A stretch of 64,000 nucleotides of DNA from Candidatus Bathyarchaeota archaeon (GCA_020341775.1 CP070835.1:1692089-1756088), one strand, 5' to 3'; shown: positions 16,783-55,140, counted from the stretch's first letter. Notes: a model not told the origin generated them from the sequence alone. Numbers and translations are program-made.

Positions 16783-16788
16783 ACCTCT

Positions 16789-17556: not shown

Positions 17557-17617
17557 AAGGCAAAGGAGAGCTTCGCCCATGCCTTTCAAAAAGATAGTCT
17601 GCAGAGAAGGTTTTGAC

Positions 17618-19147: not shown

Positions 19148-19468
19148 CTACATCATTCCCAACAAAATGTTGTACTGCTTTAAAAAGTTCCGTCCCTTCT
19201 CACTTGCACCGTACAACACGCGCTTTCCTCGAGTCATTGTTTCAATGAACCCCATCTCATCGAGAGATTCGATATATTTCGTAACCTCTGAAGTGTTAGT
19301 TCCAATATGTTTCATGATGGAATATCTGGAAGCCTTTTCATCATTAAGAACTTCAAGGAGTGAAGCAATGATCTCAAAATGACTTCTATTTTTCTTCCCT
19401 GTCAAAGAATGCAGACCAGAATATCTTCTATAGCTTTCCATCAAATTCCCTACAATGTATGTATTCAT
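19148..19468 (-). CDS. small winged-helix DNA-binding protein (HTH_45-like)
   Basis: 106 aa. SHFEIIASLLEVLNDEKASRYSIMKHIGTNTSEVTKYIESLDEMGFIE...GKRVLYGASEKGRNFL is a wHTH with wing. Confidence 0.65.
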   Translation of the reverse strand: MNTYIVGNLMESYRRYSGLHSLTGKKNRSHFEIIASLLEVLNDEKASRYSIMKHIGTNTSEVTKYIESLDEMGFIETMTRGKRVLYGASEKGRNFLKQYNILLGMM

Positions 19469-19521
19469 AATTGAAAGACATCTAGGTTTTTTCGATTGAC
19501 CTTATTGAAAAAGATGTCCAT

Positions 19522-19541
19522 TATATGAAAATATATGAAAT
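19522..19541. promoter_or_regulatory. 2 x 10 bp tandem TATATGAAA(A/T) in a divergent promoter region
   Basis: TATATGAAAA TATATGAAAT sits 28 nt upstream of ATG 19569 and 54 nt upstream of the divergent wHTH gene start. TATA-box-like units repeated at one helical turn. Confidence 0.35.
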
Positions 19542-19568
19542 ATACCGTACTGGACGCAAAGCATATTT

Positions 19569-20216
19569 ATGTTATTTCAACTGAAACTATTGAAAGGAGT
19601 CAACAGTTTGTCTCAACTTCGACTGTCTCCAAATGATGTTCAGTTCCTACAGGACACCTTAATCACAGAATTCAAGGTCACTAATATACGCCTGCGAGAA
19701 GGTGAATACCAACACGATCTTGCGAAGGCAATCGCATCCTATCAACTGGAATTACAGTTTCCACACGTCAAAGACATAATTCAGCGGCTCTATGGGGAAG
19801 AGAAAATTGAGGACATCGCGTTCATTAGGAAAATTCAAACGATCCTAAAAAAGATGGAGCGGAACAACGTCGTCAAAATTCTGCCAAAAGGAAAGCCCTG
19901 GGCACTCCAAAGATACGCCTTGTCAAGCTTCAGTTTTGAGGATGTAGACAAGAATCGCGTCTCGTTCGCCACCGAAGAGCAGATAGTGCAAATGCAGGAT
20001 CTGTTACTGTCAATTGGTCAGCAGGGGCAACCCACAGCAAAACTAGCCACCTCCAAAACTAAGATTTTCGCGTTGGTGGCTATTTTGATAGCATCATACG
20101 CCGCAGTGTTGTGGGACTTGATGCAGCCGATTATCACCCCGATCTTGTTCATCCCAGGATTCTCACTTGCAGTCATCTGCTCCCTAATGCTCGGGAGAAC
20201 TCTTTCTCGACAGTAG
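19569..20216 (+). CDS. hypothetical protein with C-terminal membrane anchor
   Basis: 215 aa: soluble N-terminal region then two hydrophobic segments (IFALVAILIASYAAVLW, ILFIPGFSLAVICSLMLG). Confidence 0.5.
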   Translation: MLFQLKLLKGVNSLSQLRLSPNDVQFLQDTLITEFKVTNIRLREGEYQHDLAKAIASYQLELQFPHVKDIIQRLYGEEKIEDIAFIRKIQTILKKMERNNVVKILPKGKPWALQRYALSSFSFEDVDKNRVSFATEEQIVQMQDLLLSIGQQGQPTAKLATSKTKIFALVAILIASYAAVLWDLMQPIITPILFIPGFSLAVICSLMLGRTLSRQ

Positions 20217-20239
20217 CCATTGGCAGGAGCTTCACCTTA

Positions 20240-29192: not shown

Positions 29193-30506
29193 TTACTTGG
29201 ACTCTTTGACAAAACTTATCAAGAGCGTAGCTGCTAAAAGCTCAATAGCTGAAAAAAGGTAGAATGGCATAGCCTGTTCAACTTGGTATAAGAAACCTCC
29301 TGCTAGGGTTCCAAGTGCTGAAGCCATTGTAGTACTAAGCTGCCAAAAAGCTGTTATGCGTCCCCTCAACTCTTTGCGTGTTAAATCAGCTTGCAGCGCT
29401 TCGTAGGCTGGAGCATAATAAATTCCGAAGATCATAAGAAGCGTCGCCATAATTAGAGCATGTTCGAATGAGCGAGACAACGAAAACAATATTGTACAGG
29501 GCGAGCAAGCTACTATTGAGAAAATCATCACGTTTCTTTTACCTACTCTGTCGCTTAACCACGCTCCTGGAATCTTCAGGATTATTGAGAAAGATTGAAC
29601 ACTGACTATTACTGCCCATTGGAAGGGCCTGAGCCCTACGATACTTGATGCGTAGAGAATGTAATATGGCCCTACCGTGCCGTTAGCAAAGGCTACTAGG
29701 GCAGATGAAAATAACAACACCCCAAGCTGCCTTGATGAGGATCTTGGAAGCCTCACTACACTCTTGAACTTCTCAAGATAAGATGATTCAATATCTTGTT
29801 TTGGTATATGCAGTAGCGTTTCCTTTAAATACAGAAAAAGGATGAGCGCGGAAAGGAAAAATGTGGCTCCTGTATATACACAAGCTAGCCTAAAGCCTTC
29901 CGCCAAACCGTAATTATGAATCAACCACCCTCCCACGATCGGCGATAATGCTGCTGGAAGAGAGGAGATGACTTGGAGGATTGCGATTCCCGTAGTTCGC
30001 CTTTTAGGAGAAACAGAATCAACGACGAGAGTGCGTAAAGCGGGCGTTGAGATTGATCCAATCGCAGCACATATGCTTAGAACTGCAAATAAACACCAAT
30101 CGGATGTGAGCGCATATAGAAAAGGAAAGAATCCAGTGTAAAATGCCCCCGTGACTATGATGGGCCTTCGACCATAGCAATCGGCTATAACACCCCCAAA
30201 AAGAACCATGGAAGCTCCGATGATCGATGCTGTTGCGGTCATGATGCCCAACATAAGAGGGTTTCCGCCAAGCCCGACGAAATAAAGCGACATAAAGGTA
30301 CTTATCAAACCACTCCCAAAACCCCTCACAACATTGCTGGTCCCGATAACAGCGAAATTACTCCTAAGTGCGCTTAGAGAATGGAAGCTTGAGGCCTTGG
30401 CATCGTCAAGATGACTTTCGCCAATATGAACGTCGCTTTTCTTCACTCGTTTTGGATGTAGAGAGACCAAAGCCTTACTTCCTGTTCGATTGCATTCTTC
30501 ATTCAC
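29193..30506 (-). CDS. MFS transporter
   Basis: About 12 hydrophobic segments. MFS loop motif ADCYGRRPIIV between TM2 and TM3 and a second SDRVGKRNVM in the C-terminal half. Confidence 0.85.
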   Translation of the reverse strand: MNEECNRTGSKALVSLHPKRVKKSDVHIGESHLDDAKASSFHSLSALRSNFAVIGTSNVVRGFGSGLISTFMSLYFVGLGGNPLMLGIMTATASIIGASMVLFGGVIADCYGRRPIIVTGAFYTGFFPFLYALTSDWCLFAVLSICAAIGSISTPALRTLVVDSVSPKRRTTGIAILQVISSLPAALSPIVGGWLIHNYGLAEGFRLACVYTGATFFLSALILFLYLKETLLHIPKQDIESSYLEKFKSVVRLPRSSSRQLGVLLFSSALVAFANGTVGPYYILYASSIVGLRPFQWAVIVSVQSFSIILKIPGAWLSDRVGKRNVMIFSIVACSPCTILFSLSRSFEHALIMATLLMIFGIYYAPAYEALQADLTRKELRGRITAFWQLSTTMASALGTLAGGFLYQVEQAMPFYLFSAIELLAATLLISFVKESK

Positions 30507-35011: not shown

Positions 35012-35143
35012 GCCCTGGTAGTATAGTCCGGTCACAAGGAGTGTGTTCCTCAATGCCGGAATAGTATAAGCGGCTGTCGCCCGCTCGACACTACAGAGAG
35101 CATCTGTAACGAGAACCGGGTTCAAATCCCGGCCAGGGCGCCA
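35012..35143 (+). tRNA. tRNA-Asp(GUC) with two non-canonical inserts (D-loop and variable region); CCA encoded
   Basis: Hand fold: acceptor GCCCTGG/CCAGGGC, anticodon arm AGCGG-CTGTCGC-CCGCT (35069-35085), T arm CCGGG-TTCAAAT-CCCGG. 132 nt total versus about 77 expected. Extra ~28 nt lie between 35035 and 35063, and ~26 nt between 35089 and 35115. Confidence 0.8.
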
Positions 35144-35365: not shown

Positions 35366-36010
35366 TTATTTGGATAATAACTTTTTAGCGACATCAACAC
35401 ATGCCATAGCGTCTTCAGCATAAGCGTCGGCTTCGATTTCTTCGGCCCAGGCCGCCGAGACCGGAGCCCCCCCTACGATCACCTTTACCTGTCCTCTAAG
35501 TCCAACTTTTTTGAGAGCGTTGATCACCTCAGCCATCTTCACCATGGTTGTCGTCAGCAAAGCTGACATTCCGATGATGTCTGGTTTGACTTCCTTCGCC
35601 TTCTCAACAAACTTTGATGTTGGCGTATCACATCCGAGGTCGTGAACCTCGAAGCCGTTGACAGTGAGCATTGTGGCTACGATGCTTTTGCCGATGTCGT
35701 GGATGTCCCCTTCGACCGTTCCGATAATAACTTTACCCAAAACCTTTCTGGACTTCCCCTTAGCTAAAGCTGGCTCCAGTGTGGCTAGAGATTCTTTCAT
35801 AGCTTGAGCTGCTATCATCAACTCTGGAAGGAATATCTCCTCAGCTTCAAATTTGGCTCCTACAATACTTAGACCCTCTCCTAAGCCTTGCTCAATTGCT
35901 ATAAGTGGGTCAAAGCCAGTTTCTATGACCTCTTTAGCAACTGCAACCGCTCCCTCAACGTCATAGTTCAGGACAGCTTCCTTAAGTCGCTTCAAAACAT
36001 TTTCCGCCAT
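35366..36010 (-). CDS. corrinoid (cobalamin-binding) methyl-carrier protein 1
   Basis: B12-binding DxHxxG (GDIHDIGKSIV), MSALLTTTM and VIVGGAPVS motifs, with an N-terminal helical cap. ATG 36010 has GGAGG 8 nt upstream. The ORF-track start at 36052 is rejected. Confidence 0.85.
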   Translation of the reverse strand: MAENVLKRLKEAVLNYDVEGAVAVAKEVIETGFDPLIAIEQGLGEGLSIVGAKFEAEEIFLPELMIAAQAMKESLATLEPALAKGKSRKVLGKVIIGTVEGDIHDIGKSIVATMLTVNGFEVHDLGCDTPTSKFVEKAKEVKPDIIGMSALLTTTMVKMAEVINALKKVGLRGQVKVIVGGAPVSAAWAEEIEADAYAEDAMACVDVAKKLLSK

Positions 36011-36203
36011 TAAACAATCCTCCCGGACGATAGCGTCTTGGCAAAAGAACACATACTTGCTTTATATAATTTCCTACTAAACATCTTTTGAAAGTGATAT
36101 TGCCTGATGCGGGTGCAAACTGCAAGATCGCGTGCACATCTTCATTTAGGCTTGAACTTGATACCTAGGTCCTCCATGCGCAAGCGTATGAATACCGTGA
36201 GGG

Positions 36204-37169
36204 CTAAAAGGTGGCTTTCTCCAGTGTTTCAACGAATGCGGGAAACAGCTTGTATAATGGATGCTTCTTGGACAAAGGTTTTATTCCAAAATCTATTCTG
36301 ACTGACGTCGCGATTATTGCGTCAATTGCAGCACTTGCTGGGATCACCCAGGACGCTGATTCTATTGGACCATAAAGCAGGTAATCAGCTCCAAGGATTA
36401 AAGGCACAACCTCCACACTTGCCCAGCAAGCTTTGAGTATGTCCGGTCCCCAACGTCTTGCCTCCTTCCAAACTGAGGCGGCGTTTCCGGGAGAGCCGCC
36501 CACAGGGAGGCCGAGTTTTTCTTTCACAAAGAAACATGCTTTGGCCCCCACTCCTATGCTTGGAATATAAGTGAAGAGGGTTGTGTCCACCAATGGTTTC
36601 TCTATGCCGGCTTCCTCCGCTATTTTTAGTAATCCCTTCTGTTTTTGGGTTCCTTTTAGGAGTGATACAACGCCTTTTGGAGTGCGATCCTTTACGTTGT
36701 AGGCAAGCAAGATGGCTGCTTTTACCTTTGATTCCTTAATGGCGGCAATTTCGCTTTCGTCAGGTGGTGGAGTGGGCATTATGCTGTTGTAAATGGTTCT
36801 TTCTGCTAGGCCAACTTCAGCTATATGTGTCAGCGCTGCGATTCTCACCTCGGGAAGCCAAGCGTCAAATGAGATCAGAGAGTCTGTAAATTCTGAAACA
36901 AAATCGACATATCGAAGTGCTGATTGAACCGTCGTTGCAACGATATCCACGCCACAAGGGTTGCCCGTAAGATCAGAAAGTTCATCTTGAACATTGAGAA
37001 GTGCCTCCGCCTTTTTTTTGTCAAAGATGCCCCTTTTCTCATCTTTTACGATTTTATGTCCTTCATAGAAGGTGGTTCCAATCAATAATGTGGGGAGTTC
37101 TCCTGGCTGCCCTCCAACCTTTGCTTCTCCTATCTTGAAGATTTTTTGCTTAGCTTCAAACTTGAACAT
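36204..37169 (-). CDS. mtrH: MtrH-family methyltransferase (methyl-corrinoid:tetrahydromethanopterin-type)
   Basis: N-terminus MFKFEAKQKIFKIGEAKVGGQPGELPTLLIGTTFYEGHKIVKDEKRGIFDKKKAE closely follows the MtrH signature. Length of 321 aa is typical. Confidence 0.85.
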   Translation of the reverse strand: MFKFEAKQKIFKIGEAKVGGQPGELPTLLIGTTFYEGHKIVKDEKRGIFDKKKAEALLNVQDELSDLTGNPCGVDIVATTVQSALRYVDFVSEFTDSLISFDAWLPEVRIAALTHIAEVGLAERTIYNSIMPTPPPDESEIAAIKESKVKAAILLAYNVKDRTPKGVVSLLKGTQKQKGLLKIAEEAGIEKPLVDTTLFTYIPSIGVGAKACFFVKEKLGLPVGGSPGNAASVWKEARRWGPDILKACWASVEVVPLILGADYLLYGPIESASWVIPASAAIDAIIATSVRIDFGIKPLSKKHPLYKLFPAFVETLEKATF

Positions 37170-37190
37170 GGGGGCTCATCTTTCTAGTCA

Positions 37191-39158
37191 TCACTTAATA
37201 CGACCCAGCCTTCGTAGCAGATTTGCTGTGTCCGGATACCTGTCTAGGTTCTTGTGAGGGAAGAAGAGAGCATCTAGATATTCCTTCTGGAAGTCTTCGT
37301 CTGCAGCCAACTCGTGATATTTCACGGTTGTCGCTATCTTTTCAGCGTATTCCCTCTCTTCTTTTGATATTAGACACATTCTTGCGCCTGTGCCGGCGAT
37401 GTTGCCGACAAACTCAACTCTTTCTAATGGTAATTCAGGATACATGCCGATGGTCCTAGCGTTCTCGGGGTCGATGTAGTTGCCAAAGGCCCCTGCCATA
37501 AACAACTTGCTTATGTCGCTCTCCGTGACGGTTTCTTTTCTTTTCTCTCCCAGTCTCTTCATCAGGATCTCGGCGCCGGTTCGCATCGCGGCTTTCGCTT
37601 TTTGCAGTTCTCTTATATCGCCTTGGGTTATTGTGATGTCAGTGTCGGTAGCTGTTTCGGGTTGCGGTACCAACACAAATTCGGGAATTCCCTTTAGCCC
37701 CCTTCTTAGCCGGTCTGTCTCCTTGGCCATTTCGGAGACAAATTTGCCTGTCAGATCAATCAAACCTGCCTTGAGAAGCTCGGCTGGGACATCTACCAAG
37801 GCTGACCCACACAGACCAACAGGGGGCTTCTCTTCTATGGTTCGATAGTTGACCTCAAATGTTTCAGGGTCGATGCTTACTCTCTCGATGGCTCCGGTTG
37901 CAGCCCTCATTCCGTGTTTGATTTGCATGCCTTCAAATGCTGGTCCAGATGCGCATGAGTCAACCATGACTAGATCCTTGTTCCCTAGGTCGATCTCCGT
38001 GTTTGTTCCAATGTCAAGCGCCAGACAAATCTCATCAGAGTCCAACATTCTCGTGGCTAGTATGACCGCCACGTTGTCCGCCCCTACAAATCCCCCGATG
38101 ACTGGAGCATAATAGGCGTTCGCCCTTGGATGGGAGACTAACCCAATACTGCTAGCCCTGATATCAACTCCTCTCCGCAGCACCGGAGGGTAGGGCGCAA
38201 ACGCGACATACCGACCATAGATGCCGAGGAAGCAAAGCTGCATTGCTGTGTTGCCAACACAGCAGATCTCGTAGATCTCACTTGTTTTCACGTTGGACTT
38301 TTCGCAGCACTCCTCGATCATCTCGTTAATTCCGGACACTACAGCTGCCTGGAGTTCTTCGACGCCTTTTTGGCCCTCCAGCATCTGATGACTTATCCTC
38401 GACATCACTTCTTCGCCCAAAGGGATCTGGGGATTCATCCTAGCGGCAACAGCGACAACCTTCCCAGTGTTAAGGTCCATTAGGAAGCCTGCAAGCTTTG
38501 TGGTTCCCACATCGACGGCGAAGCCGAAGCATCTGTCAGATGTGTCTGAAGGCTCAATGTCAATGATCTTGTTCTTCCATTTAACTGCAGTAACTGTCCA
38601 ATCCGCATCTCTCAGTTTATTGGCAAGGTCTACAGCTACTTCGAAATTGAGGTCCAACTCTGTGGGGAGGTTGTACTTCGCATTTAACGCGTCTAGAAGT
38701 CTATCTTCGTCCGACCGGCTGTCGTGGAGGGTCGGCTCTGGCAGTTTTACAGGATACTTTCTGACAAATGGATTGAGTTGCTCTACCAGGACTTCGAGAC
38801 CTGCTGTCTGCAACCTTTGCTTTCCAATCCTGCTTCTCTCTGGAACATAAACTGAAACAGTAGTAGTTGGCATAGTTTGGCATGCAAGCCTATAACCTGC
38901 CTCTATCTCTTCCTCCGTGATGTGCTTCAGCTCCTGCTCTGTGAGGGAGTTCAGCCCTTTCATGCCTTTCTCGATTTTGACTTTGCATTTTCCGCAAGTA
39001 CCTTTGCCCCCACAAAGCGAAGATAGGTCGATACCCAACGCCTTAGCAGCGTCAAATATACATACACCTTTTTTGAACCACTCCCTCTTTCCGTATGGAA
39101 AAAATAAAATTTTTATGCGTCCGGACCTCTCGACTTCCTCTCTCAGAGTCAACGGCAT
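37191..39158 (-). CDS. reductive activator of corrinoid proteins (RACo/RamA-like; 2Fe-2S ferredoxin plus ASKHA ATPase)
   Basis: N-terminal plant-type ferredoxin cysteines CGGKGTCGKCKV...LACQT. ASKHA phosphate motifs DVGTTK and DIGTNTE. Length of 655 aa. Confidence 0.85.
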   Translation of the reverse strand: MPLTLREEVERSGRIKILFFPYGKREWFKKGVCIFDAAKALGIDLSSLCGGKGTCGKCKVKIEKGMKGLNSLTEQELKHITEEEIEAGYRLACQTMPTTTVSVYVPERSRIGKQRLQTAGLEVLVEQLNPFVRKYPVKLPEPTLHDSRSDEDRLLDALNAKYNLPTELDLNFEVAVDLANKLRDADWTVTAVKWKNKIIDIEPSDTSDRCFGFAVDVGTTKLAGFLMDLNTGKVVAVAARMNPQIPLGEEVMSRISHQMLEGQKGVEELQAAVVSGINEMIEECCEKSNVKTSEIYEICCVGNTAMQLCFLGIYGRYVAFAPYPPVLRRGVDIRASSIGLVSHPRANAYYAPVIGGFVGADNVAVILATRMLDSDEICLALDIGTNTEIDLGNKDLVMVDSCASGPAFEGMQIKHGMRAATGAIERVSIDPETFEVNYRTIEEKPPVGLCGSALVDVPAELLKAGLIDLTGKFVSEMAKETDRLRRGLKGIPEFVLVPQPETATDTDITITQGDIRELQKAKAAMRTGAEILMKRLGEKRKETVTESDISKLFMAGAFGNYIDPENARTIGMYPELPLERVEFVGNIAGTGARMCLISKEEREYAEKIATTVKYHELAADEDFQKEYLDALFFPHKNLDRYPDTANLLRRLGRIK

Positions 39159-39877
39159 TCACCAGCTTGACTTCCCCTTTTTTTTCGCTTCCTTTCCATG
39201 AGCTTTACTGCTTCCTTAATTTCTTCAACCAACGTCTTTACTTTGTCCACTGCTTCAACTGCGTCCTTGCCGTAAGCATCTGAGCCCAGTTTCGACCTCC
39301 ACTGCTCAGTGACTGTGCCGCCACCTATAATGGTCTTAACTTTTCCTTTCAGACCCTTTTTCGCCAACTTCTCCTCAACATCCTTAATTGACACGAGGGT
39401 TGGCGTCATCATGGTTGACATAGCTATAACCCCGATCTCTTCCTCAGAGGCTTTTTCAATGAACTCTGAGGCTGGCACGTCTACGCCCAAATCGACCACT
39501 TCGTATCCAGCTGCCGTGAGCATCGCTTTCACAATGTTCTTCCCTATGTCGTGGATGTCTCCCTCCACCACGCCAAGAACGATTTTTTCCTTTCTCTCAG
39601 CCCTCTCTGTCTTCAAGAGCGGAAGAAGGAGCTCCAACCCGGCGTACATAGCCTCAGCTGATAGGAGCATTTCGGGGAGGAAGTATTCTTTGTTCTCAAA
39701 TTTGTCACCGACCACCTCCATAGCCTTTGATAATCCTTCCTTGATTACTTTCATGGGGGCAATTCCTGCGTCTATGGCATCTTGAGCTGCCTTTGCGCAC
39801 TCTTCGGTCTCCCCTAAAATTACGGCTTGTCTAAGCCTCTCAAAGATTTCTTCTTTTCTGCTCATTTTTATCATCAT
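39149..39877 (-). CDS. corrinoid (cobalamin-binding) methyl-carrier protein 2
   Basis: GDIHDIGKNIV (DxHxxG), MSTMMTPTL, TIIGGGTVT. 3' end overlaps the RACo start by 10 nt. Confidence 0.85.
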   Translation of the reverse strand: MMIKMSRKEEIFERLRQAVILGETEECAKAAQDAIDAGIAPMKVIKEGLSKAMEVVGDKFENKEYFLPEMLLSAEAMYAGLELLLPLLKTERAERKEKIVLGVVEGDIHDIGKNIVKAMLTAAGYEVVDLGVDVPASEFIEKASEEEIGVIAMSTMMTPTLVSIKDVEEKLAKKGLKGKVKTIIGGGTVTEQWRSKLGSDAYGKDAVEAVDKVKTLVEEIKEAVKLMERKRKKRGSQAGECR

Positions 39878-39917
39878 TCCTTAATGGGGAAAGTCTTCAA
39901 TGAGGTATAGGAATTTG

Positions 39918-40991
39918 CTAATCCTCCTCTTTTTTCCATCGCGGCGGTGTTCCATACTCAATGGCGGCGTTCACGAACTCCCTTATGTGTTCTGTCGATG
40001 TTTCTATCCAATAGTCACACCCCGGAGAAACCATGTCTACACCGTCCGCGACAACCTTTTTGACCCTGCTCCTAATTGCATCTATTGATGAGTTGTGTAT
40101 GACGTTATATGGGTCAACGTTTCCGCCTATTACATAGCCAGCTCTATGTTCGTCGGCTATCTTCCTTGCCTCAGACATTGGCGTTCTTTCCTCTATTGTT
40201 ATAGCTTCAGCTCCACAGTCTATCATCGAAGTAATGACTTCAAGGCCTCTGCTTATTAGGCTCCCGCATATGTGAAGGACTCTAGGCGGCTTCACCATAC
40301 CAATTAACTCGGTGAGGTGAGGCTTAACAAACTGGTCAAAGTGTTTTGGTGAGATGTTGTCGAGAGAGGCTCCCTCCTCGGTGAAAACTATTACGTCGGC
40401 TCCTGCTTCCTTAAACGCATTTGCCACTGCAGCATAATATGGATTAAGCGTTTCATAGATACGATGAATTCTCTCAGGCTCTTTTATCATGTATTTGTGG
40501 AACTCAGCCGGATCGATCAAATAGCCCCCGACACTTGTCAACGGACAGGTAACAATGCCTGTTACTGGAACCTTCCCTCCATATTTCTTCTTCAATATTC
40601 TTATCGCCTCGATGCAGACTGGAATTCTCCCTCTCTTGGCAAATTCGCTGGGATCCTCTGGGATATCCATCTCGTAAATGTCGGTGGCAATGAATCTCTT
40701 AACCGATATCCACTTTATTTTCCCCTCGAAATACTCGCAAGGTGCGCCAAGAGCCTCTGCCTCCAAGGTCATGTCAAATGGCACAGACATGTTTTCGTTT
40801 CCGGTTAGCTCGTAAACACCCGCCGCCAATCTAGCCATTGTCTCCGGATCCTTATGGGCTTTCGGCCAATAAGCATCGAATATCTTCATGCCATCTAAAG
40901 TAAACGTTCGAGTGGAACACCAAACTGGAAGTCGGTCGGCATCTTCTTTCCTTCCCTCTAGGAAAGCCATCAATCTTTCGTGAGGATTCAT
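39918..40991 (-). CDS. UroD-family methylcobamide methyltransferase (MtaA/MtbA-like), paralogue 1
   Basis: MNPHERLMAFLEGRKEDADRLPVW...PFDMTLEAEALGA. Zn-ligand motif H-x-C (LHICGS) and distal PGCDYW. Confidence 0.85.
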   Translation of the reverse strand: MNPHERLMAFLEGRKEDADRLPVWCSTRTFTLDGMKIFDAYWPKAHKDPETMARLAAGVYELTGNENMSVPFDMTLEAEALGAPCEYFEGKIKWISVKRFIATDIYEMDIPEDPSEFAKRGRIPVCIEAIRILKKKYGGKVPVTGIVTCPLTSVGGYLIDPAEFHKYMIKEPERIHRIYETLNPYYAAVANAFKEAGADVIVFTEEGASLDNISPKHFDQFVKPHLTELIGMVKPPRVLHICGSLISRGLEVITSMIDCGAEAITIEERTPMSEARKIADEHRAGYVIGGNVDPYNVIHNSSIDAIRSRVKKVVADGVDMVSPGCDYWIETSTEHIREFVNAAIEYGTPPRWKKEED

Positions 40992-41078
40992 TTCTTCTCA
41001 ACTGTATCTGTTTCTGTAGTGCCCGGGCTCGCAAATGTCCGTTAAAGGTTTTAAGCCCATGAATCTTATATAAAGTCG

Positions 41079-41324
41079 GTGTCTGAAATGGGCATGCCCG
41101 TAAAAAAGAAGACGTATGACATTAAAAGTAGGATAGGCGATAGCTTAGAGGTTAGGGTTGAAAAGGTCGGCACGGGAGAGAAGGCGGACATCCTTTATAG
41201 AATAACTCGTGGCAAAGATAGACGAGTTGCTGCTCCGGACACGGTTGTACTCTTCAAGGCGGAGCTAGAGGAACTAAGCGGGCTTCTGAAGGAAGATTTT
41301 CTGAAGAGGGAGTTTCAGAATTAG
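41079..41324 (+). CDS. small hypothetical protein on the opposite strand inside the methyltransferase island
   Basis: 81 aa ORF with protein-like composition. The only plus-strand ORF that does not overlap a minus-strand gene in 35.4-45.4 kb. Confidence 0.4.
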   Translation: MSEMGMPVKKKTYDIKSRIGDSLEVRVEKVGTGEKADILYRITRGKDRRVAAPDTVVLFKAELEELSGLLKEDFLKREFQN

Positions 41325-41444
41325 GGCTAACGTCACAGTGCAGCGCTTTTGAAACATTATCGTAGGGCTAGAAACGTTTTTACCGTTACTAGGCTTGAGC
41401 AGAATCAGCCGTTGAAGAACTGCATTTTATGGTGTTAGAGTTCC

Positions 41445-42461
41445 CTATCTGACGCAAGCTTTTACAAGGGCTTCTATGTGCTTCGTAGGTGTTTCTATCC
41501 AGAAGTCGCATCCTGGAGCCACCACGCTGACTCCCTCCTCTATACACCCCTTCACAGCCTCGCTGATCCTTTCAACAGGACCCTGATGTATTACTCCATA
41601 AGAGGGAACGTTTCCAATTATCGGATATCCAGGCCTGATTCTGTCAACCTTTTCCCTCGCCTCCTTAATGGGAGTTCTCTCATCAACCGCTATGGCGCTT
41701 GCACCGCACTCAACCATCTTGTCCAAGATCATCGAAGCAGAACCACATATGTTTAGGATCGTGGGTGACTTTAAACGCCTGATAATCACCTGCAGACATG
41801 GCTTAACGAACTCGTCGAAATGCTTCGGAGAAATATTATCGTTAGAAGCACCCATACCATGCAAAGTGATGATGTCGGCCCCGGCATCTCTGTACAAATT
41901 CGCTATTTCAACATAGACATCAATAGTGTCTTTAAGAAACTGATGAGCCTTCTCTGGCATCTTCCTCAGCCACTTCAAGAATGTGATGCTGTCAACCAAG
42001 TAGCTACTGATACTTGTAAACGGTGGAACCATGTAAGCGTTCACCGGAACCTTACCTCCAAATTCCTCCTTCAATTTTCTGATCGCCTCGACAACGATGG
42101 GAACTCTTCCAGTCTTTGACACATCCTTTGGAAACTTGAGATCGGAAGGATCTTTCATAAGGAATTCCCTAACTGACGGCCACTTTATCCTGTCTTCATG
42201 AAAGTCGATCACAGCACCCAAAACCTCTGCCTCAACCGTCATGCAGAATGGAACCGATACGTTGTCGAGACCACACAATCTGTGAGCCGCTGAGCCAAGC
42301 TTGGCCATTTTCACGGGATCTTTATGGGCAGCCGGCCAAAAAGCGTCGTAAGCCTTCATAAACTCAATCGTACAAACGCTGGCAGAGTTCATGCAGGGGA
42401 ACCTATCAACATCCTCTTCTTTCCCGCTCAGGATGGACATCAACCTCTTGTATGGCGTCAC
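41445..42461 (-). CDS. UroD-family methyltransferase (MtaA/MtbA-like), paralogue 2
   Basis: Same fold signature (RFPCMNSA..., PFCMTVEAEVLGA, APGCDFW), but the H-x-C motif reads LNICGS (Asn in place of His). GTG start. Confidence 0.85.
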   Translation of the reverse strand: MTPYKRLMSILSGKEEDVDRFPCMNSASVCTIEFMKAYDAFWPAAHKDPVKMAKLGSAAHRLCGLDNVSVPFCMTVEAEVLGAVIDFHEDRIKWPSVREFLMKDPSDLKFPKDVSKTGRVPIVVEAIRKLKEEFGGKVPVNAYMVPPFTSISSYLVDSITFLKWLRKMPEKAHQFLKDTIDVYVEIANLYRDAGADIITLHGMGASNDNISPKHFDEFVKPCLQVIIRRLKSPTILNICGSASMILDKMVECGASAIAVDERTPIKEAREKVDRIRPGYPIIGNVPSYGVIHQGPVERISEAVKGCIEEGVSVVAPGCDFWIETPTKHIEALVKACVR

Positions 42462-42572
42462 TTTTCATCACACGTAATAATCCTGGCTATGTTTATGTGA
42501 CTTTCTCCAAACATGCATGTATGCAGGAGCTGTTCTATCACAGGGGACAAACGAAAGTTTGCTTCGCTTGGT

Positions 42573-43586
42573 CTACTCCTTAACGACCTGAACCATAGCC
42601 CTGATGTTATCGATCGGCGTTATTGGAGAGAAACCGCATCCCGGTTCAAGAAAGTCGACGCCAGACTCGAGGGCATTTCTCGCTTCTTTTTTCACGTCTT
42701 CGGCGGATCCGAAAACCAGAGTACTCTTAGAGGAGACGTTGCCCAAGATCTTGACATCGCCTACAAGTGGTCTTATTTTGGCAACGTCCACGACTTCATC
42801 GATGCTTATCCCATCAAAATCAGTTTCAACCATGTCAGGTGTTATCATCTCAGCTCTCCCACAGATGTGTAGCAGCCTCGGTCCACCTAGGCTCTCGGCG
42901 ATTTTGGTCAAAGCTGGCTTGACAAACTGCTTGAAGGCGGCAGGACTTATCAATTCGGGTGACGCTGTTGGGTCGCTGACTTGCACTATGTCCGAGCCCG
43001 CTCGGTATTGGGCTTTGGCGTATTCCACGATGACATCTGTGACCAAGGCAACGAATTCTTTCACATAGACAGGCTTTCTTACAGTCCAAATCAGAAGCTT
43101 CTCTACTCCCGCTAATTCGCCAGCTAGCGTGAAGGGTCCGAGCGCAAGGCTTGAAATCGGCAGTGAATCTCCCACCTCTTTTCTAATTATCCTGATGGCT
43201 TCCAACACAACAGGAATTCTGTCCATCTCAAGCAGATTCTCTGGCATCCTTAGGTCTTCGGGCTTTTCGAAGGGATGAGTCCGTACGGCAGGAACACTCT
43301 GAGGACTTGCCCCCCAGCGAATCTCGCATCCCAAAGCCTCGGGTTCTACCACAAAGTCAAATGGTACTCTGATGTTCTCGATTCCAGTCAACTCGTGACT
43401 GGCTATGGCAAGCCTCGCCATCTTCTCTGCGTCCTTATGGGCCTCGGGACAATGTGTATCAACAGCGTCTTGCACATCAACCGTTGCAGTTCCCCCACAG
43501 CCTGCAAGCGAGGTCACCGGAACCCTATCCACCGCCCCGCCGAATAAAGCGGTCAAAACCCTTCTTTTGCAGCTAAACTGCCTCAA
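42573..43586 (-). CDS. UroD-family methyltransferase (MtaA/MtbA-like), paralogue 3
   Basis: DRVPVTSLAG..., PFDFVVEPEALGC, LHICGR, EPGCGF. TTG start. Confidence 0.8.
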   Translation of the reverse strand: MRQFSCKRRVLTALFGGAVDRVPVTSLAGCGGTATVDVQDAVDTHCPEAHKDAEKMARLAIASHELTGIENIRVPFDFVVEPEALGCEIRWGASPQSVPAVRTHPFEKPEDLRMPENLLEMDRIPVVLEAIRIIRKEVGDSLPISSLALGPFTLAGELAGVEKLLIWTVRKPVYVKEFVALVTDVIVEYAKAQYRAGSDIVQVSDPTASPELISPAAFKQFVKPALTKIAESLGGPRLLHICGRAEMITPDMVETDFDGISIDEVVDVAKIRPLVGDVKILGNVSSKSTLVFGSAEDVKKEARNALESGVDFLEPGCGFSPITPIDNIRAMVQVVKE

Positions 43587-43729
43587 CCTCTTTACCCATT
43601 CTTTCTTTCTGTGTTGCCCACTTAAACCTAACTCGCAGAGGACTCAGTTCGATCCAGGTGCAAACAGTTCGAGCAACAAATTAATCGAGCCCAATTGATT
43701 TCTTCTACTTTGTTACGTCTCGACCCACA

Positions 43730-45214
43730 TTAGGATGCCGAAACTAAAGGCAAGGTCGATATTTTGTGTTGTTTCATTATGTCCCTCACAACATCTTCTA
43801 AATCATTTTCAATGTCATGCGGTAGTGGCTCAGGCTTGTGTTCTTTTAATGTTTTCTCTACGATCACCTTTGCCCTTTGAACAATATCCTTTGATCCGGC
43901 TGCCTTCCATGCTTTCCACTCTCGGCGATCAATGATTTCAGAGGGCATGAATTGCTCTTTCCGAAACCATTGCAGCGTGTGTTTTTCAGCTAAGTACATT
44001 CCACCTGGACCTACCTTCCTTAACAAGTCGGCAGCAAGGGTTTCGTCGTCAACTCTGACACCTTTCACCAGCCTTAGGGCCATGCCGCAAATCGTGTTGT
44101 CAATAACAAGCTTCTCTAAGCTTTGACAGCTCTCAAAGTTTAGCATGCCCGGCCCCGACATAACATTAATTCCGGCAAGTGCCCCAAGCACTATCCCAAT
44201 TCCGGATTCAAACCCGCATTGTGCGTCAACGACTTTTGTGTCGCTAAGTCCAAGGTACATGTGAGTCGGCAGCCCATAATATTTCCCAATTTGAGCGTAG
44301 GAGCAACCGAGCATAATGGTCTCTATGGCTCCGAGACGAGCTGTGGCGTATCTTTGGTCAAATGTCGTTGGTGAACCGCCATAGATGACTGGAGCTCCTG
44401 GGTTCGTTAACTGAGCCATCACGAGACCGCTAAGGAATTCAGCGTTATGCTGAACAAGAGACCCAGCCAGCGTTGCTGGCCCAGTAGCGCCTAGTTGGGG
44501 CATCGGGACAATTTCAGCGGGGATGCGAAACTTGGCGCAGTCAATTAGGTTTTGGGAAAGAAGTTCACTCCACTTCAACGGTGCTGATGGACATGTGTCA
44601 AAAACTGCCATGGGCTTTCTAGCCAACTCCTTTTCGCCTCCAACCACAGCCTCAAGCATCCGTTTCATATCATAAAGGCCATCAACGCTAAATGTACCCG
44701 TAACTATTGGTTTAGGAGAGTTCTTCAGAACAACAAATAGGCGGTATCGATCGACGATACCCACAGGGACATCCGAGACTACCAACGCCGTGCTTTGAGC
44801 CTGCACATATTCTAAAGCGTCGGTCAACCTGACGAGGTCAGCCAAATCTCTTGATAATGGGCGTCGAGTCTCATTTGTCTTGGAGTCGAGAATGAACAAC
44901 GCTGCTGAGCCTGGATTGTAAGTAACTTTATTCCTTTCGAGAACTCGGTCATGCTTTCCATCGCGACTGTAAAGCCTAATGGTCGAGGGCGCTTTGACTA
45001 GAGACTCCTTCACGAGATGTTGAGGAATACGAGCGAGTTTGTTGTTAGAGTCGACCTCAGCCCCCGCATCGGCAAGTAGTCTCAATGCTGTGTCATTGTA
45101 GATTTTGACACCAACATCTTCCAAAAGCTTCGTAGAGGCGAGGTGGATGGATTCGACCTCGTCTCTGGACAGCAGTTGGAGTCGTGGAACATTAGAGAAA
45201 GAGAATTTTGACAT
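43730..45214 (-). CDS. MttB-superfamily (trimethylamine methyltransferase-like) corrinoid methyltransferase, no pyrrolysine codon
   Basis: PRLQLLSRDEVESIHLASTKLLEDVGVKIYNDTALRLLADAGAEVD and later blocks fit the MttB family. About 494 aa from ATG 45214, which has GGGAG upstream. The reading frame has no internal TAG. The ORF-track start at 45436 adds 74 basic non-conserved residues and is rejected. Confidence 0.88.
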   Translation of the reverse strand: MSKFSFSNVPRLQLLSRDEVESIHLASTKLLEDVGVKIYNDTALRLLADAGAEVDSNNKLARIPQHLVKESLVKAPSTIRLYSRDGKHDRVLERNKVTYNPGSAALFILDSKTNETRRPLSRDLADLVRLTDALEYVQAQSTALVVSDVPVGIVDRYRLFVVLKNSPKPIVTGTFSVDGLYDMKRMLEAVVGGEKELARKPMAVFDTCPSAPLKWSELLSQNLIDCAKFRIPAEIVPMPQLGATGPATLAGSLVQHNAEFLSGLVMAQLTNPGAPVIYGGSPTTFDQRYATARLGAIETIMLGCSYAQIGKYYGLPTHMYLGLSDTKVVDAQCGFESGIGIVLGALAGINVMSGPGMLNFESCQSLEKLVIDNTICGMALRLVKGVRVDDETLAADLLRKVGPGGMYLAEKHTLQWFRKEQFMPSEIIDRREWKAWKAAGSKDIVQRAKVIVEKTLKEHKPEPLPHDIENDLEDVVRDIMKQHKISTLPLVSAS

Positions 45215-45435
45215 TGAACTCCCTCTTCTTTTAGCTTTTCCCGTATAGGATCCTAATAAACTTCTCCTGCAACTTTTTAAAACCTTTATGAATTCTTCAC
45301 CAACCATCCTTCTCTTTCGTTTAGAATCTGCTACTCCCCTCAGCCTTTTCCAATTCTTTTCCAGCCTTCCACCATAACGAAGTTTCCAATGCCCGCAAAC
45401 CCAAATAGTTCTGTGCGCGTTTTGCGCATCTAACA

Positions 45436-46224
45436 TCAGAGAAGGTCGATTTCGTCTTGTATTGCCTTCCGCACTTCTTCTTCTGAAGCCGGACCAGGCA
45501 GTTTGATCTTGCCATTGATCAGAGGTTCCGAGGTTCCGTATTTCTTAACGTTATTCAAGGTAGACTCGATCTCGACAAGCTTGACCTTGTCCCCAAAGCT
45601 TTGAGCGACGCTTCTAATAAGTTGATGCATATGAGCGCCGACAGGACAAAAGAAGTTATCGAATAGAGTCACTTCAACCGCATCCTTCGAAGGCGTATAG
45701 TTCAGCTGTAAAACTTTGACAGAGACATTTTCTTTCGCAAGTGGGAAATACATGACTTTATAGAACGGCGCGTGCTCCGCCACTATTCGGAATCCTTGTT
45801 TACGGAAAAGTCCATAATACATCCACTCTTTGAGGTCTGTTGCAGGGATCATTATGCCCTTCAATCCTCGTTCCTTCAGATCAACCTTCATGTAGTCAAA
45901 CATCATTCTGCCATAACCCTTATGCATGTACGCTCGTCGCATTTCAGTGCAATAGATGCAAGCCACTCTTGGCTCGACCTCGTATGGAATAAGCGCCTTC
46001 TCTGAATTTGCATAGTAGATGTGGCCGACGACTTTCTCGCCATCAAGTAGGTGATAACCTTCGACATGCTTGCCCAGGTTACTCTTCAACCACTTCCTCG
46101 ACACTGGTAGAGATTCGCTCCAAGAAGCATTGGATGGTACTTCCTTCATGCAGCAGTATGTCGCCTCCAAATCGCTCGGTGTCAACTTTATAACTTTCAC
46201 CCAGTTCACACTATTCAGATACAA
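45436..46224 (-). CDS. GNAT acetyltransferase fused to a thioredoxin-fold (Thioredoxin_3-like) C-terminal domain
   Basis: GNAT core MRRAYMHKGYGRMMFDYM. C-terminal VEVTLFDNFFCPVGAHMHQLIRSV...VKKYGTSEPLINGKIKLPGPASEEEV resembles small redox-inactive thioredoxin-like proteins with CxxC degraded to CPVG. Confidence 0.65.
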   Translation of the reverse strand: MYLNSVNWVKVIKLTPSDLEATYCCMKEVPSNASWSESLPVSRKWLKSNLGKHVEGYHLLDGEKVVGHIYYANSEKALIPYEVEPRVACIYCTEMRRAYMHKGYGRMMFDYMKVDLKERGLKGIMIPATDLKEWMYYGLFRKQGFRIVAEHAPFYKVMYFPLAKENVSVKVLQLNYTPSKDAVEVTLFDNFFCPVGAHMHQLIRSVAQSFGDKVKLVEIESTLNNVKKYGTSEPLINGKIKLPGPASEEEVRKAIQDEIDLL

Positions 46225-46374: not shown

Positions 46375-46752
46375 GTGACTGAAATCAGGCAGGTTTACCG
46401 GTGTGATGTGTGTGGAAACATAATCGAGGTTTTACATGAAGGAGCTGATTCGCTTGTGTGCTGTGGCCAGCCAATGAGTTTGCTGGCTGAAAAAACCACC
46501 GATGTTGGCTTGGAAAAACATGTCCCAGTTATTGAAAAGGCCGGAAACGAAGTTACCGTCAAAGTCGGTAGCATTCCTCATCCCATGGAACAAAACCATT
46601 ACATTGAGTGGATAGAGATAGTTGCTGATTCAACATCTTGCAGGAAATTCCTGAAGCCCAACGAAAAACCGGAAGCTGTGTTCGAAACAAAAGCAGGAAT
46701 GCTGAAAGCTCGAGAATACTGCAGCATCCATGGTCTTTGGAAGAGCCAATGA
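46375..46752 (+). CDS. dfx: desulfoferrodoxin (2Fe superoxide reductase)
   Basis: Centre I cysteines CDVCGN...VCCGQPM. Centre II ligands KHVP, PHPM, HYIEW and CSIHGLW. GAGGAGGTG RBS before the GTG start. Confidence 0.92.
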   Translation: MTEIRQVYRCDVCGNIIEVLHEGADSLVCCGQPMSLLAEKTTDVGLEKHVPVIEKAGNEVTVKVGSIPHPMEQNHYIEWIEIVADSTSCRKFLKPNEKPEAVFETKAGMLKAREYCSIHGLWKSQ

Positions 46753-55025: not shown

Positions 55026-55140
55026 TGGTGCCGGGGGCGGGATTCGAACTCGCGACTTCTGGGCTTGGGCTGCTTAGGCCCTTTCTTCTCGCTCTCCAGA
55101 TTATGAGTCTGGCGCCCAAACCAGGCTAGGCTACCCCGGC
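55026..55140 (-). tRNA. tRNA with CAU anticodon (elongator Met or Ile2) carrying a ~37 nt insert at the variable-region/T-stem junction; CCA encoded
   Basis: Reverse complement folds as acceptor GCCGGGG/CCCCGGC, D arm GCCT-AGCCTGGTTT-GGGC, anticodon arm CCAGA-CTCATAA-TCTGG, T arm GCGAG-TTCGAAT-CCCGC (one A-C mismatch). 115 nt versus 78 expected. G1:C72 and a non-GGG/CCC anticodon stem argue against an initiator. Confidence 0.8.

Follow-up and report, generated by a model that had tools for sequence, protein, structure and literature searches.

A corrinoid methyl-transfer gene island of Bathyarchaeota that joins a stand-alone MtrH to MttB-family and MtaA-like methyltransferases

Here, we describe a 10-kb set of genes for B12-dependent methyl transfer within a 64-kb stretch (hereafter the window) of a publicly available, closed Bathyarchaeota genome, a set that is confirmed as real and as conserved in Bathyarchaeota and most of whose parts are already known from earlier genome studies. 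We propose, with roughly even confidence, that it encodes a modular, soluble corrinoid methyl-transfer system that has a single exit, on the pterin side, and two or more entry lines, and that would probably bring methyl groups of the quaternary-amine and sulfur/selenium types into the carbon-fixation pathway of a sediment-type archaeon.

Gene order and conservation of the island

The island occupies positions 35366-45436 of the window, where the ORF listing gives eight intact minus-strand reading frames whose ends are exactly those of the preliminary description (Table 1). Each of the eight proteins has a near full-length match in Pfam, with which NCBIfam is concordant, so that the families first named (MttB, three URO-D proteins, two corrinoid proteins, an activase and MtrH) are all upheld. 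The statement that all genes lie on the minus strand is correct for these eight, but a conserved plus-strand gene for a 76-aa protein, JSW72_09470, interrupts the island. This small protein has 27 homologues (72-100% identity), those with a name all being from Bathyarchaeota and several lying on contigs equal in size to contigs that carry UroD2 homologues; a homologue (57-59%) also adjoins a UroD3-like gene in two other loci, L002 and L003. It has no match in Pfam or NCBIfam, and its AlphaFold2 model reaches a pLDDT of 54.

Because the island and its neighbours recur together in L090 and L091, which are independent assemblies of this species, and because synteny of its modules extends to other phyla, the grouping is not due to chance. 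Tight packing is confined to uroD3-CoP2-RACo-mtrH, where the successive gaps are 40, -10 and 21 bp, the 3' end of the CoP2 gene overlapping the start of the RACo gene, and where a TATA-like box lies ahead (TTTATATA, 83 nt upstream of UroD3). A further box, ATTATATA, is found 60 nt upstream of Met15 of CoP1, and mttB is followed directly by uroD1 with no TATA-like box between the two. These promoter assignments are matches to a consensus only; the whole island is unlikely to be read as a single transcript. The 64-kb window contains no genes of mcr, mtrA-G, the Wood-Ljungdahl pathway or coenzyme M (CoM) synthesis, which bears out the absence of mcr genes noted at the outset.

Table 1. Features of the island in order of transcription, with the small plus-strand gene (positions in the window)
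Feature	Position	Strand	Basis or remark
MttB-superfamily methyltransferase (MT1), non-pyrrolysine	43730-45214	-	494 aa from Met75 (most likely start); long ORF to 45436
UroD1, MtaA-type corrinoid methyltransferase	42573-43586	-	URO-D 268 bits; His-Cys-Cys (LHICG ... PGCG)
UroD2, MtaA-like, of a conserved archaeal clade	41445-42461	-	URO-D 224 bits; Asn for the zinc-ligand His (LNICG ... PGCDFW)
JSW72_09470, conserved small gene	41094-41324	+	76 aa; in the 453-bp UroD2-UroD3 gap
UroD3, MtaA-like	39918-40991	-	URO-D 213 bits; LHICG ... PGCDYW; heads the uroD3-CoP2-RACo-mtrH unit
Corrinoid protein 2 (CoP2), putatively cognate to the UroD/MtrH module	39149-39877	-	B12-binding_2 + B12-binding
RACo/MtoD-type ATP-dependent reductive activase	37191-39158	-	Fer2, RACo_linker, Raco_middle and RACo_C_ter, in order
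Stand-alone MtrH-family methylcorrinoid:pterin methyltransferase (MT2)	36204-37169	-	Pfam MtrH (PF02007) 297 bits
Corrinoid protein 1 (CoP1)	35366-36010	-	B12-binding_2 + B12-binding; ORF to 36052

Methyltransferases, corrinoid proteins and activase

The start of the MttB-superfamily protein is most likely Met75 (about position 45214), since the first 74 residues of the long frame are unmatched and the alignment with M. barkeri MttB begins at that residue. The protein covers positions 17-492 of the 500 in the Pfam profile MTTB (PF06253; 314 bits against a cut-off of 25). A pyrrolysine-type trimethylamine enzyme is ruled out by a sub-cut-off score with the NCBIfam model TIGR02369 (466 against 525 bits), by an uninterrupted frame with no in-frame TAG and by a leucine that aligns with Pyl334 of M. 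barkeri MttB (7xcl), a position where MtgB of Desulfitobacterium hafniense (2qne) also has leucine. Leucine is the residue that betaine-type enzymes have at the pyrrolysine position. The protein scores higher with pyrrolysine-type MttB (269 bits) than with MtgB (228 bits). Four other Bathyarchaeota loci (L015, L016, L023 and L082) have an orthologue of 75-79% identity that adjoins both a CoP1-like gene and the MtrH module, the CoP1-like gene (56-60% identity) being immediately beside the MttB orthologue in L015, L016/L086 and L082, and CoP1 is the probable partner of MttB. CoP1 itself probably begins at Met15 (214 aa, as given by gene callers) and exceeds the TIGR02370 cut-off of 215 with 233 bits, CoP2 lying just under it with 213; both carry the DxHxxG motif as GDIHDIG in translation.

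The activase scores 474 bits with the AcsV model and 150 bits, through its ASKHA part only, with the RamA model TIGR04270 (cut-off 500), and its N-terminal domain shows a C-x5-C-x2-C...C pattern in translation. The original label of RACo/RamA type is thereby narrowed to a RACo/AcsV/MtoD-type protein with an N-terminal [2Fe-2S] domain, and a RamA-type activase is ruled out. MtrH, which is 100% identical to UCB60310.1, exceeds the cut-offs of TIGR01114 (292 against 271 bits) and PRK00979 (305 against 287 bits) and stays below that of the MtgA model (273 against 550 bits), while in a PDB search its score with soluble MtgA (6sj8, 233 bits) is on a par with those of MtrH chains from Mtr complexes (223 and 213 bits). 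Its gene belongs to a CoP-RACo-MtrH unit, has RACo, CoP2 and CoP1 as neighbours and has no mtrA-G genes beside it or anywhere in the 64-kb window, in keeping with an MtrH of the stand-alone type.

All three UroD paralogues (337-357 aa) exceed the cut-off of the NCBIfam MtaA/MtbA subfamily (PRK06252 / TIGR01463), the PRK06252 scores being 375, 298 and 260 bits for UroD1, UroD2 and UroD3 against a cut-off of 244; none reaches the equivalog models MtaA_Meth (cut-off 400; UroD1 361 bits) or MtbA (cut-off 600). Against M. mazei MtaA (4ay7) they score 282, 189 and 170 bits in the same order. The O-demethylase clade was represented by CdmB (9rui), the solved MT1 nearest to MtoB (31% identity), which neither UroD1 nor UroD3 matches at E <= 0.001 and UroD2 does not match at E <= 10. 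This comparison places all three paralogues within the MtaA clade, outside the MtoB/CdmB clade. A neighbour-joining tree separates them into three distinct clades, that of UroD3 being sister to that of UroD2.

UroD1 alone looks like a true MtaA: it is 42% identical to the M. mazei enzyme, and its 56% orthologue lies directly upstream of MtaB-MtaC in L002. The His-Cys-Cys zinc ligands are kept in UroD1 and UroD3, whereas UroD2 is Asn-Cys-Cys, with L-N-x-C-G in 117 of its 120 nearest homologues (62-98% identity), the named ones among which are from Bathy-, Hadarch- and Heimdallarchaeota; this substitution may mean that UroD2 works by another chemistry or is a subunit without catalytic function. 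Orthologues of UroD2 (54-74% identity) stand beside MtrH-CoP-RACo in 12 loci, and an 80% orthologue of UroD3 lies inside a RACo-MtrH-UroD-CoP unit of Hodarchaeota.

Distribution of the MtrH/UroD cassette and related systems

The combination of MtrH, UroD2-type, UroD3-type and CoP2-type proteins with RACo recurs in Bathyarchaeota, Hadarchaeota and Hodarchaeota, and MtrH with one or more MtaA-like UroDs, a corrinoid protein and RACo is also present on contigs of Desulfotomaculum, Anaerolineae and Dehalococcoidales. A UroD gene lies within 6 kb at 13 of 18 loci whose MtrH is at least 47.5% identical to that of the island, against 3 of 64 with a more distant MtrH, and the UroD2 and UroD3 clades appear to be fixed partners of this MtrH subclade. 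The three bacterial groups are, to our knowledge, not known to use CoM, and a CoM-outlet role is therefore unlikely for UroD2 and UroD3 at least. Of the two outlets first ascribed to the island, MtrH-type and MtaA-type, the MtrH exit is retained as likely; UroD2 and UroD3 go with MtrH, UroD2 without the His ligand, and only UroD1 resembles a genuine MtaA, which leaves a second exit to CoM weakly supported. Elsewhere it is MtmB/CoP pairs to which the cassette is linked (L088); it also lies near MtaB/MtaC (L002) and, in one mcr-bearing Bathyarchaeota chromosome of 3.05 Mb, is about 7 kb from mcrBGA.

Taken together, the cassette spans Bathyarchaeia, Hadarchaeia, Asgard archaea, Desulfotomaculum and Chloroflexota, with one methyltransferase drawn from a fixed Asn-Cys-Cys clade. 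We suggest tentatively, as a possibility rather than an expectation, that MtrH, two divergent MtaA-like proteins, a corrinoid protein and RACo make up an undescribed cross-domain system that passes methyl groups from sulfur or selenium compounds (dimethyl sulfide, methanethiol, methylmercaptopropionate) to the H4MPT/folate C1 pool. We know of no established enzymology for such a route, which, if real, would provide abundant sediment microbes with acetogenesis or respiration driven by methyl-sulfur compounds.

Several characterised systems resemble the island in part. MtoABCD of Methermicoccus shengliensis and Archaeoglobus fulgidus, in which an MtrH-like MT2 has been demonstrated to pass the methyl group of the corrinoid to a pterin rather than to CoM (PMC8630106), likewise combines one corrinoid protein and a RACo-type activase of the [2Fe-2S] kind with two UroD-superfamily methyltransferases, but the UroDs of the island belong with the MtaA/soluble CoM-methyltransferase clade and not with MtoB/MtvB/CdmB, are about 100 residues shorter and are accompanied by an MttB/CoP pair. 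The glycine betaine:tetrahydrofolate system MtgABC of D. hafniense shares an MttB-family MT1 with leucine at the pyrrolysine position, a corrinoid protein and an MtrH-family MT2, MtgA being the best PDB match of the island's MtrH; the island differs in an MttB nearer to the pyrrolysine type, in scores below the MtgA and MtgC cut-offs of NCBIfam and in an acceptor that is presumably tetrahydromethanopterin (H4MPT). With MtaABC and MttBC-MtbA of methylotrophic methanogens it has in common an MT1, a corrinoid protein and an MtaA/MtbA-type zinc methyltransferase (UroD1), whereas its activase is of RACo and not RamA type, its MttB is without pyrrolysine, MCR is absent from its 64 kb and its MtaA-like genes are embedded with MtrH, an arrangement absent from those systems. 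By parts list, the island resembles the sdm genes of M. voltae and the type 1 mlp clusters of Kountz and Balskus (2023), which are found in anaerobes of both domains and proposed to act on S/Se-methyl groups (PMC10418091): in each, several MtaA-like proteins from distinct clades are accompanied by a RACE activase and a corrinoid protein. The mlp clusters are without a pterin methyltransferase, unlike the island with its MtrH, and the island also differs in its Asn-Cys-Cys UroD2. The MtrA-H membrane complex contains a homologous MtrH, as the TIGR01114 and solved-complex scores indicate, but the neighbours of the island gene encode soluble corrinoid proteins and an activase, and no role in sodium pumping can be inferred for it. 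The remark that such genes are not biochemically resolved holds for the island's enzymes and their orthologues, but not for the wider MtrH family, since MtoA and MtgA have been assayed (PMC8630106).

Proposed methyl flow and competing readings

In the modular scheme proposed here, two input lines would converge on MtrH and H4MPT. Along the first, the non-pyrrolysine MttB would demethylate a quaternary amine and load the methyl group onto the Co(I) of CoP1, its putative partner; along the second, UroD3, UroD2 and possibly UroD1, with a predicted zinc-thiolate-type site, would exchange a methyl group between a substrate of the sulfur/selenium type and CoP2. The stand-alone MtrH would unload methyl-Co(III) onto H4MPT, the likely acceptor, and the resulting CH3-H4MPT may feed a Wood-Ljungdahl-type pathway towards oxidation or acetyl-CoA synthesis, while RACo would use ATP to re-reduce Co(II) to Co(I). 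Precedents for an MtrH-type MT2 are MtoABCD (PMC8630106; PMC8359953) and MtgA of D. hafniense, and a methyl feed to H4MPT in a non-methanogen, as put forward in the preliminary description, agrees with published proposals (including PMC7886697, PMC8630106 and PMC8359953). Kountz and Balskus, who described clusters of Mlp, CoP and RACE, argue that S- or Se-methyl substrates are to be expected where an MtaA-like protein has a His-Cys-Cys site (PMC10418091). We take uroD3-CoP2-RACo-mtrH together with uroD2 to be a candidate ancient mobile cassette, to which lineages would add different MT1/CoP pairs, MttB here and MtmB or MtaB elsewhere.

The UroD enzymes could work from methyl-S/Se compounds towards H4MPT or from H4MPT and CoP towards a thiol; inflow is favoured for UroD2 and UroD3, and UroD1 is possibly a thiol-side MT2. 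The energetics count against inflow, as methyl transfer from CH3-H4MPT to HS-CoM yields about -30 kJ/mol and thioether-to-pterin transfer is uphill, so that the opposite direction is favoured for thioether substrates. The place of UroD1, a good MtaA look-alike, directly after mttB speaks against the proposed scheme, as do the cassette near mcrBGA and the Asn of UroD2.

We consider unlikely an alternative, the model of the preliminary description or a stronger form of it, in which the MtaA-like enzymes are MT2s methylating a thiol (CoM or another, for example homocysteine or sulfide). Joined with MtrH, CoP2 and RACo, they would amount to a CH3-H4MPT:thiol methyltransferase that is soluble and conserves no energy, a split counterpart of Mtr or of MetH in which MtrH methylates or demethylates H4MPT and MttB/CoP1 could feed either acceptor. 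Pterin to thiol is the exergonic direction of methyl transfer, and the four modules of MetH parallel a zinc thiol barrel, a pterin barrel, a B12 module and reactivation. The alternative also draws on the identity of UroD1 to MtaA, on the scores of all three paralogues above the methylcobalamin:CoM methyltransferase subfamily cut-off, on the His-Cys-Cys sites of UroD1 and UroD3, on the position of uroD1 behind mttB and of its orthologue ahead of MtaB-MtaC, on the mcr-linked cassette and on an anabolic role for the CoP-MtrH couple raised by Loh et al. (PMC7886697). It is opposed by the absence of mcr and CoM-synthesis genes from the 64 kb, a CoM outlet being useless without MCR, by the cassettes of Hodarchaeota and of the three bacterial groups for which CoM use is not known, by the missing His ligand throughout most of the UroD2 clade and by the two to three distinct paralogues per cassette, more than one acceptor would need.

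It is improbable that the island serves low-flux salvage, demethylating methyl-Se/S compounds (dimethylselenide, methylselenol or methylthio by-products) with MtrH as a mere methyl sink and no energy or carbon pathway attached. The parts are indeed those of type 1 MGCs, in which a single corrinoid protein and a single RACE activase of the [2Fe-2S] type go with two to three MtaA-like proteins, each from its own clade (three here), and the pterin methyltransferase that is "surprisingly" absent from those clusters (PMC10418091) is present here and in the bacterial cassettes. This likeness to Mlp1-3, however, is one of parts list and clade count and not of Mlp sequences, cluster look-ups having returned no characterised names; the Mlp zinc site is invariably His-Cys-Cys save in several Mlp1 (PMC10418091), against the Asn of UroD2; no selenium-related gene lies within the window; and in several genomes there is a physical linkage to catabolic MT1s (MttB, MtmB, MtaB), which points to a bulk flow of methyl groups.

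Very improbable is methoxydotrophy on lignin-derived methoxylated aromatics by Mto/Mtv-type O-demethylases, of the kind known from Methermicoccus, Archaeoglobus and some Bathyarchaeia. Although the composition equals that of MtoB1-MtoB2-MtoC-MtoA-MtoD (a corrinoid protein with its two UroD-superfamily MT1s, an MT2 like MtrH and an activase of the [2Fe-2S] type; PMC8630106), mto homologues and "bacterial-type" MT1 clusters are reported in Bathyarchaeota (PMC8359953 among the sources) and an MFS transporter gene (29193-30506) lies about 5 kb away, the two retained Cys ligands follow the S-type and not the O-type pattern (PMC10418091), and the absent CdmB match together with the small size of the proteins, against 47-48 kDa for MtoB (PMC8630106), argues against an MtoB/MtvB/OdmB-type identity for UroD1-3. 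Methoxylated aromatics, listed among the substrates in the preliminary description, accordingly find no support here. A divergent UroD that adjoins MtrH in another locus (L022), used as the control, does match CdmB 9rui, at 1.9e-12.

Gene content and protein types of the island

Between positions 35366 and 45436 the window carries eight minus-strand open reading frames (ORFs), all uninterrupted, and the families that a preliminary description had named from the sequence (MttB, UroD/MtaA, corrinoid protein, activase and MtrH) were each matched over almost the full profile length in Pfam and NCBIfam searches, so that the eight-gene island reported there is sound. The DNA is archaeal, as seen from TFIIB, TiaS, LonB, SMC/ScpAB and intron-bearing tRNAs in the window, and it comes from a closed genome that is already in public databases with automatic annotation. 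The window MtrH is 100% identical to UCB60310.1 ('MAG: Candidatus Bathyarchaeota archaeon'), two further assemblies, GCA_012975005.1 and GCA_012974985.1, hold the same island with identical neighbours, and the closest MtrH among GTDB representatives, which do not include this genome, shares 66% identity. A literature search on accessions of sister genomes returned no paper. No mcr genes, as had been remarked, and no mtrA-G, Wood-Ljungdahl or CoM-synthesis genes were seen within the 64 kb.

Features of the window and of four comparison loci (L numbers denote MtrH-bearing loci of other genomes)
Feature	Position	Strand	Observation
MttB-superfamily protein (MT1)		-	profile match
UroD1	42573-43586	-	NCBIfam MtaA/'methylcobalamin:CoM methyltransferase' subfamily, 375 bits (cut-off 244)
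UroD2	41445-42461	-	same subfamily, 298 bits
UroD3	39918-40991	-	same subfamily, 260 bits
CoP1 and CoP2		-	corrinoid proteins; GDIHDIG motif in both
RACo activase		-	four domains, profile match
MtrH (MT2)		-	profile match
tRNA gene	35012-35140	+	226 bp downstream of CoP1
tRNA match	55029-55140	-	112 nt, 54 bits; absent from ARAGORN output
262-aa ORF	45436-46224	-	directly upstream of mttB; weak GNAT (E 5e-4) and weak thioredoxin-like matches
AAA_5/CbbQ-NirQ-NorQ-type ATPase	3362-4384	-	paired with VWA-domain protein
VWA-domain protein	1598-3325	-	
Desulfoferrodoxin gene	46375-46752	+	just upstream of island
MFS transporter gene	29193-30506	-	about 5 kb downstream of island
L001 = L008 (OY970340.1)	17427-20873		mcrB, mcrG and start of mcrA about 7 kb downstream of UroD-UroD-MtrH-UroD-CoP-RACo
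L088 (JGI 3300041077)	14767-20957		two corrinoid-protein/MtmB pairs and a third MtmB directly behind MtrH module
L092 (JBHIEC010000023.1)	641-7922		NMT1/Ssu-Tau-type ABC transporter (binding protein, permease, ATPase), DsrE-like gene, DUF6951 between RACo and MtrH
L093 (JAZFWQ010000086.1)	7955-10370		CobA/CobO/BtuR adenosyltransferase family and CobU interleaved with three URO-D genes

The MttB protein most likely starts at Met75 of its long ORF, giving 494 aa, as this is the residue from which M. barkeri MttB can be aligned. The ORF is free of amber codons, and opposite the pyrrolysine (Pyl) of MttB (7xcl) it has Leu, the residue also found in MtgB, which acts on glycine betaine. The protein is thus a non-Pyl member; a quaternary amine rather than trimethylamine would be its expected substrate, and by score Pyl-type MttB (269 bits) is a somewhat closer relative than MtgB (228 bits). 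The activase, with its N-terminal [2Fe-2S] domain, is of the RACo/AcsV/MtoD kind, so that the first half of its earlier 'RACo/RamA-type' label stands while the second falls, the score being far under the RamA cut-off. For MtrH, the match to MtgA, a soluble methylcorrinoid:tetrahydrofolate methyltransferase, reaches 233 bits, and those to the MtrH chains of Mtr complexes 223 and 213 bits.

All three UroD proteins have M. mazei MtaA as by far their best solved relative (UroD1 282 bits, 42% identity; UroD2 189 bits, 36%; UroD3 170 bits, 35%). As the Mto system shares the parts list of the island, MtoB-like O-demethylases were suspected at first, a candidate ruled out by HMM subfamily, by size and by the absence of a match to CdmB (9rui), a solved O-demethylase-related MT1. 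UroD1 and UroD3 gave no match to CdmB at E <= 0.001 and UroD2 none even at E <= 10, whereas a control, the divergent UroD adjoining MtrH in locus L022, matches it at 1.9e-12; on these comparisons UroD1-3 are therefore classed as MtaA-clade proteins and not Mto/Mtv-type O-demethylases, and methoxylated aromatics, once put forward among the possible substrates of the locus, are unlikely ones for these UroD proteins.

A conserved cassette around MtrH

Species-representative genomes were scanned with an MtrH alignment and the window proteins were mapped onto 85 loci, in which the MtrH relatives split into two groups by identity and UroD neighbourhood. Where MtrH has at least 47.5% identity to that of the window, an MtaA-like UroD lies within 6 kb in 13 of 18 loci, a corrinoid protein in 12 and RACo in 12; among more distant MtrH proteins a UroD is found in only 3/64. 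The recurrent order, namely UroD3-type, MtrH, UroD2-type, CoP2-type and RACo, is found in Bathyarchaeota, Hadarchaeota (L006, L011) and Hodarchaeota (L004).

Beside this module stand, in four Bathyarchaeota loci (one a closed chromosome), an MttB orthologue (75-79%) with a directly adjoining CoP1-like gene; in L088 corrinoid-protein/MtmB pairs come after it, and in L002 MtaB/MtaC lie nearby. As the MT1/corrinoid pairs thus differ from locus to locus, the module behaves as a hub to which varied pairs attach. The MtmB genes of L088 are called full length (459-462 aa), apparently without the amber codon of methanogen MtmB.

The cassette extends to bacteria, with a Desulfotomaculum contig reading URO-D, CoP, RACo, MtrH, URO-D, an Anaerolineae contig (L092) RACo, MtrH, URO-D, CoP, and a Dehalococcoidales contig (L093) CoP, RACo and MtrH plus three URO-D. 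None of these groups is known to use coenzyme M (CoM), which makes CoM methyltransferase activity unlikely, as a rule, for the UroD partner of MtrH. The CoM exit first proposed for the island is accordingly probably mistaken for at least two of its three UroD proteins; the tetrahydromethanopterin (H4MPT) exit was rightly interpreted. Since bacteria share the conserved cassette in which MtaA-like proteins accompany this MtrH subclade, labelling these partners 'CoM methyltransferase', or reading methanogenic potential from them, is probably wrong. DUF6951 is also a neighbour of the Desulfotomaculum cassette, and the set of transporter, DsrE-like and DUF6951 genes in L092 may point to sulfur compounds or a sulfonate as substrate.

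A coarse tree of 179 sequences, made by neighbour joining and with M. mazei MtaA (reconstructed out of a PDB alignment) as its single characterised anchor, places UroD1 with MtaA-type proteins, which have the zinc motif H-C-C then Gly, and one MtaA-type member of its group stands directly upstream of MtaB-MtaC in L002. UroD2 and UroD3 fall into sister clades of a group whose second Cys is followed by Asp (PGCDFW) and to which bacterial proteins also belong. Cluster look-ups of 20 representatives returned generic names only. UroD2 has Asn at the position of the MtaA zinc-ligand His, as do all UroD2 orthologues of the fetched loci and 117/120 of the nearest database homologues, a clade-wide change amenable to a simple site-directed test. 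The literature searched yielded no description of this change, of the fixed link between the MtrH subclade and two MtaA-clade paralogues, or of the bacterial occurrence of the cassette. Stand-alone MtrH beside a corrinoid protein has been known in Bathyarchaeia since 2015 and is discussed, with an anabolic alternative, by Loh et al. (PMC7886697); descriptions also exist of non-Pyl MttB beside MtrH in Asgard archaea, and Bathyarchaeota are reported to carry mto homologues and 'bacterial-type' MT1 clusters (PMC8359953).

Proposed methyl flow and its direction

From the families and synteny observed we infer pairings, an acceptor and a direction, the best-supported reading being a soluble corrinoid system with one pterin-side and several substrate-side methyltransferases. 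MttB would transfer a methyl group from a quaternary amine to CoP1, a sulfur- or selenium-type substrate and CoP2 would exchange methyl groups through the MtaA-like enzymes, MtrH would pass the methyl group of methyl-Co(III) to tetrahydromethanopterin, and RACo would restore Co(I). Precedent exists for each piece: the MtrH homologue MtoA unloads MtoC onto a pterin, not CoM (PMC8630106), D. hafniense MtgA does the same for the betaine system, and Kountz and Balskus argued that methyl-sulfur or methyl-selenium compounds are the substrates of His-Cys-Cys MtaA-like proteins that come together with a corrinoid protein and a RACE activase (PMC10418091).

The main weakness of the proposed mechanism is thermodynamic. 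Methyl transfer from thioether to pterin is uphill by roughly 30 kJ/mol (the textbook value for the Mtr reaction), so that the opposite direction, in which a thiol would receive the methyl group from H4MPT or a corrinoid protein in a soluble reaction like that of Mtr or MetH, stays a serious rival. It is favoured by the MtaA-like character of UroD1, by the placing of uroD1 directly after mttB and by a Bathyarchaeota chromosome of 3.05 Mb in which about 7 kb separate mcrB/G/A from the module. This closed chromosome (bin MFD04492.bin.c.5; L001) has HdrA/FlpD-, HdrB- and HdrC-like genes upstream, and its mcrB is called as two pieces (232 and 219 aa), which may reflect a frameshift or an assembly error.

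In sediments Bathyarchaeia rank with the most abundant microbes, and how they use methylated compounds matters for the cycling of carbon, sulfur and methane precursors. With two corrinoid proteins, an activase, a pterin methyltransferase and four candidate substrate methyltransferases, the island offers a complete, cloneable test set for non-methanogenic archaeal methylotrophy.

Putative transcription units and neighbouring features

Tight packing is confined to uroD3-CoP2-RACo-mtrH (spacings of 40, -10 and 21 bp), a unit preceded at 83 nt by a TTTATATA box. Further TATA-like boxes stand upstream of mttB (Met75) and CoP1 (Met15), and pattern spotting, used alone because a sigma-70 promoter scanner does not suit an archaeal host, found none between mttB, uroD1 and uroD2; from this placement we infer three putative transcription units. 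The 453-bp gap between uroD2 and uroD3 holds a 76-aa plus-strand gene, hypothetical protein JSW72_09470, which has no Pfam or NCBIfam match and an AlphaFold2 model of pLDDT 54. Its 27 homologues share 72-100% identity, those with names being from Bathyarchaeota and several lying on contigs equal in size to those of UroD2 homologues, and in L002 a 57-59% homologue adjoins a UroD3-like gene.

The desulfoferrodoxin and MFS transporter genes flanking the island are not conserved beside the module in other lineages. The stop of the ORF upstream of mttB overlaps the ATG of the long mttB ORF, and this ORF is kept in same-species loci. The tRNA gene near CoP1, with an anticodon loop CUGUCGC giving GUC (Asp), carries one non-canonical insertion of 33 nt in the D-loop and another of about 27 nt behind the anticodon stem; it scored 36.5 bits in a local Rfam search and was missed by ARAGORN and a whole-window Rfam scan. 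The second tRNA match, from its length, presumably contains an intron. An AAA+VWA fusion similar to the ATPase/VWA pair of the window is contained in the Hodarchaeota methyltransferase locus L004.
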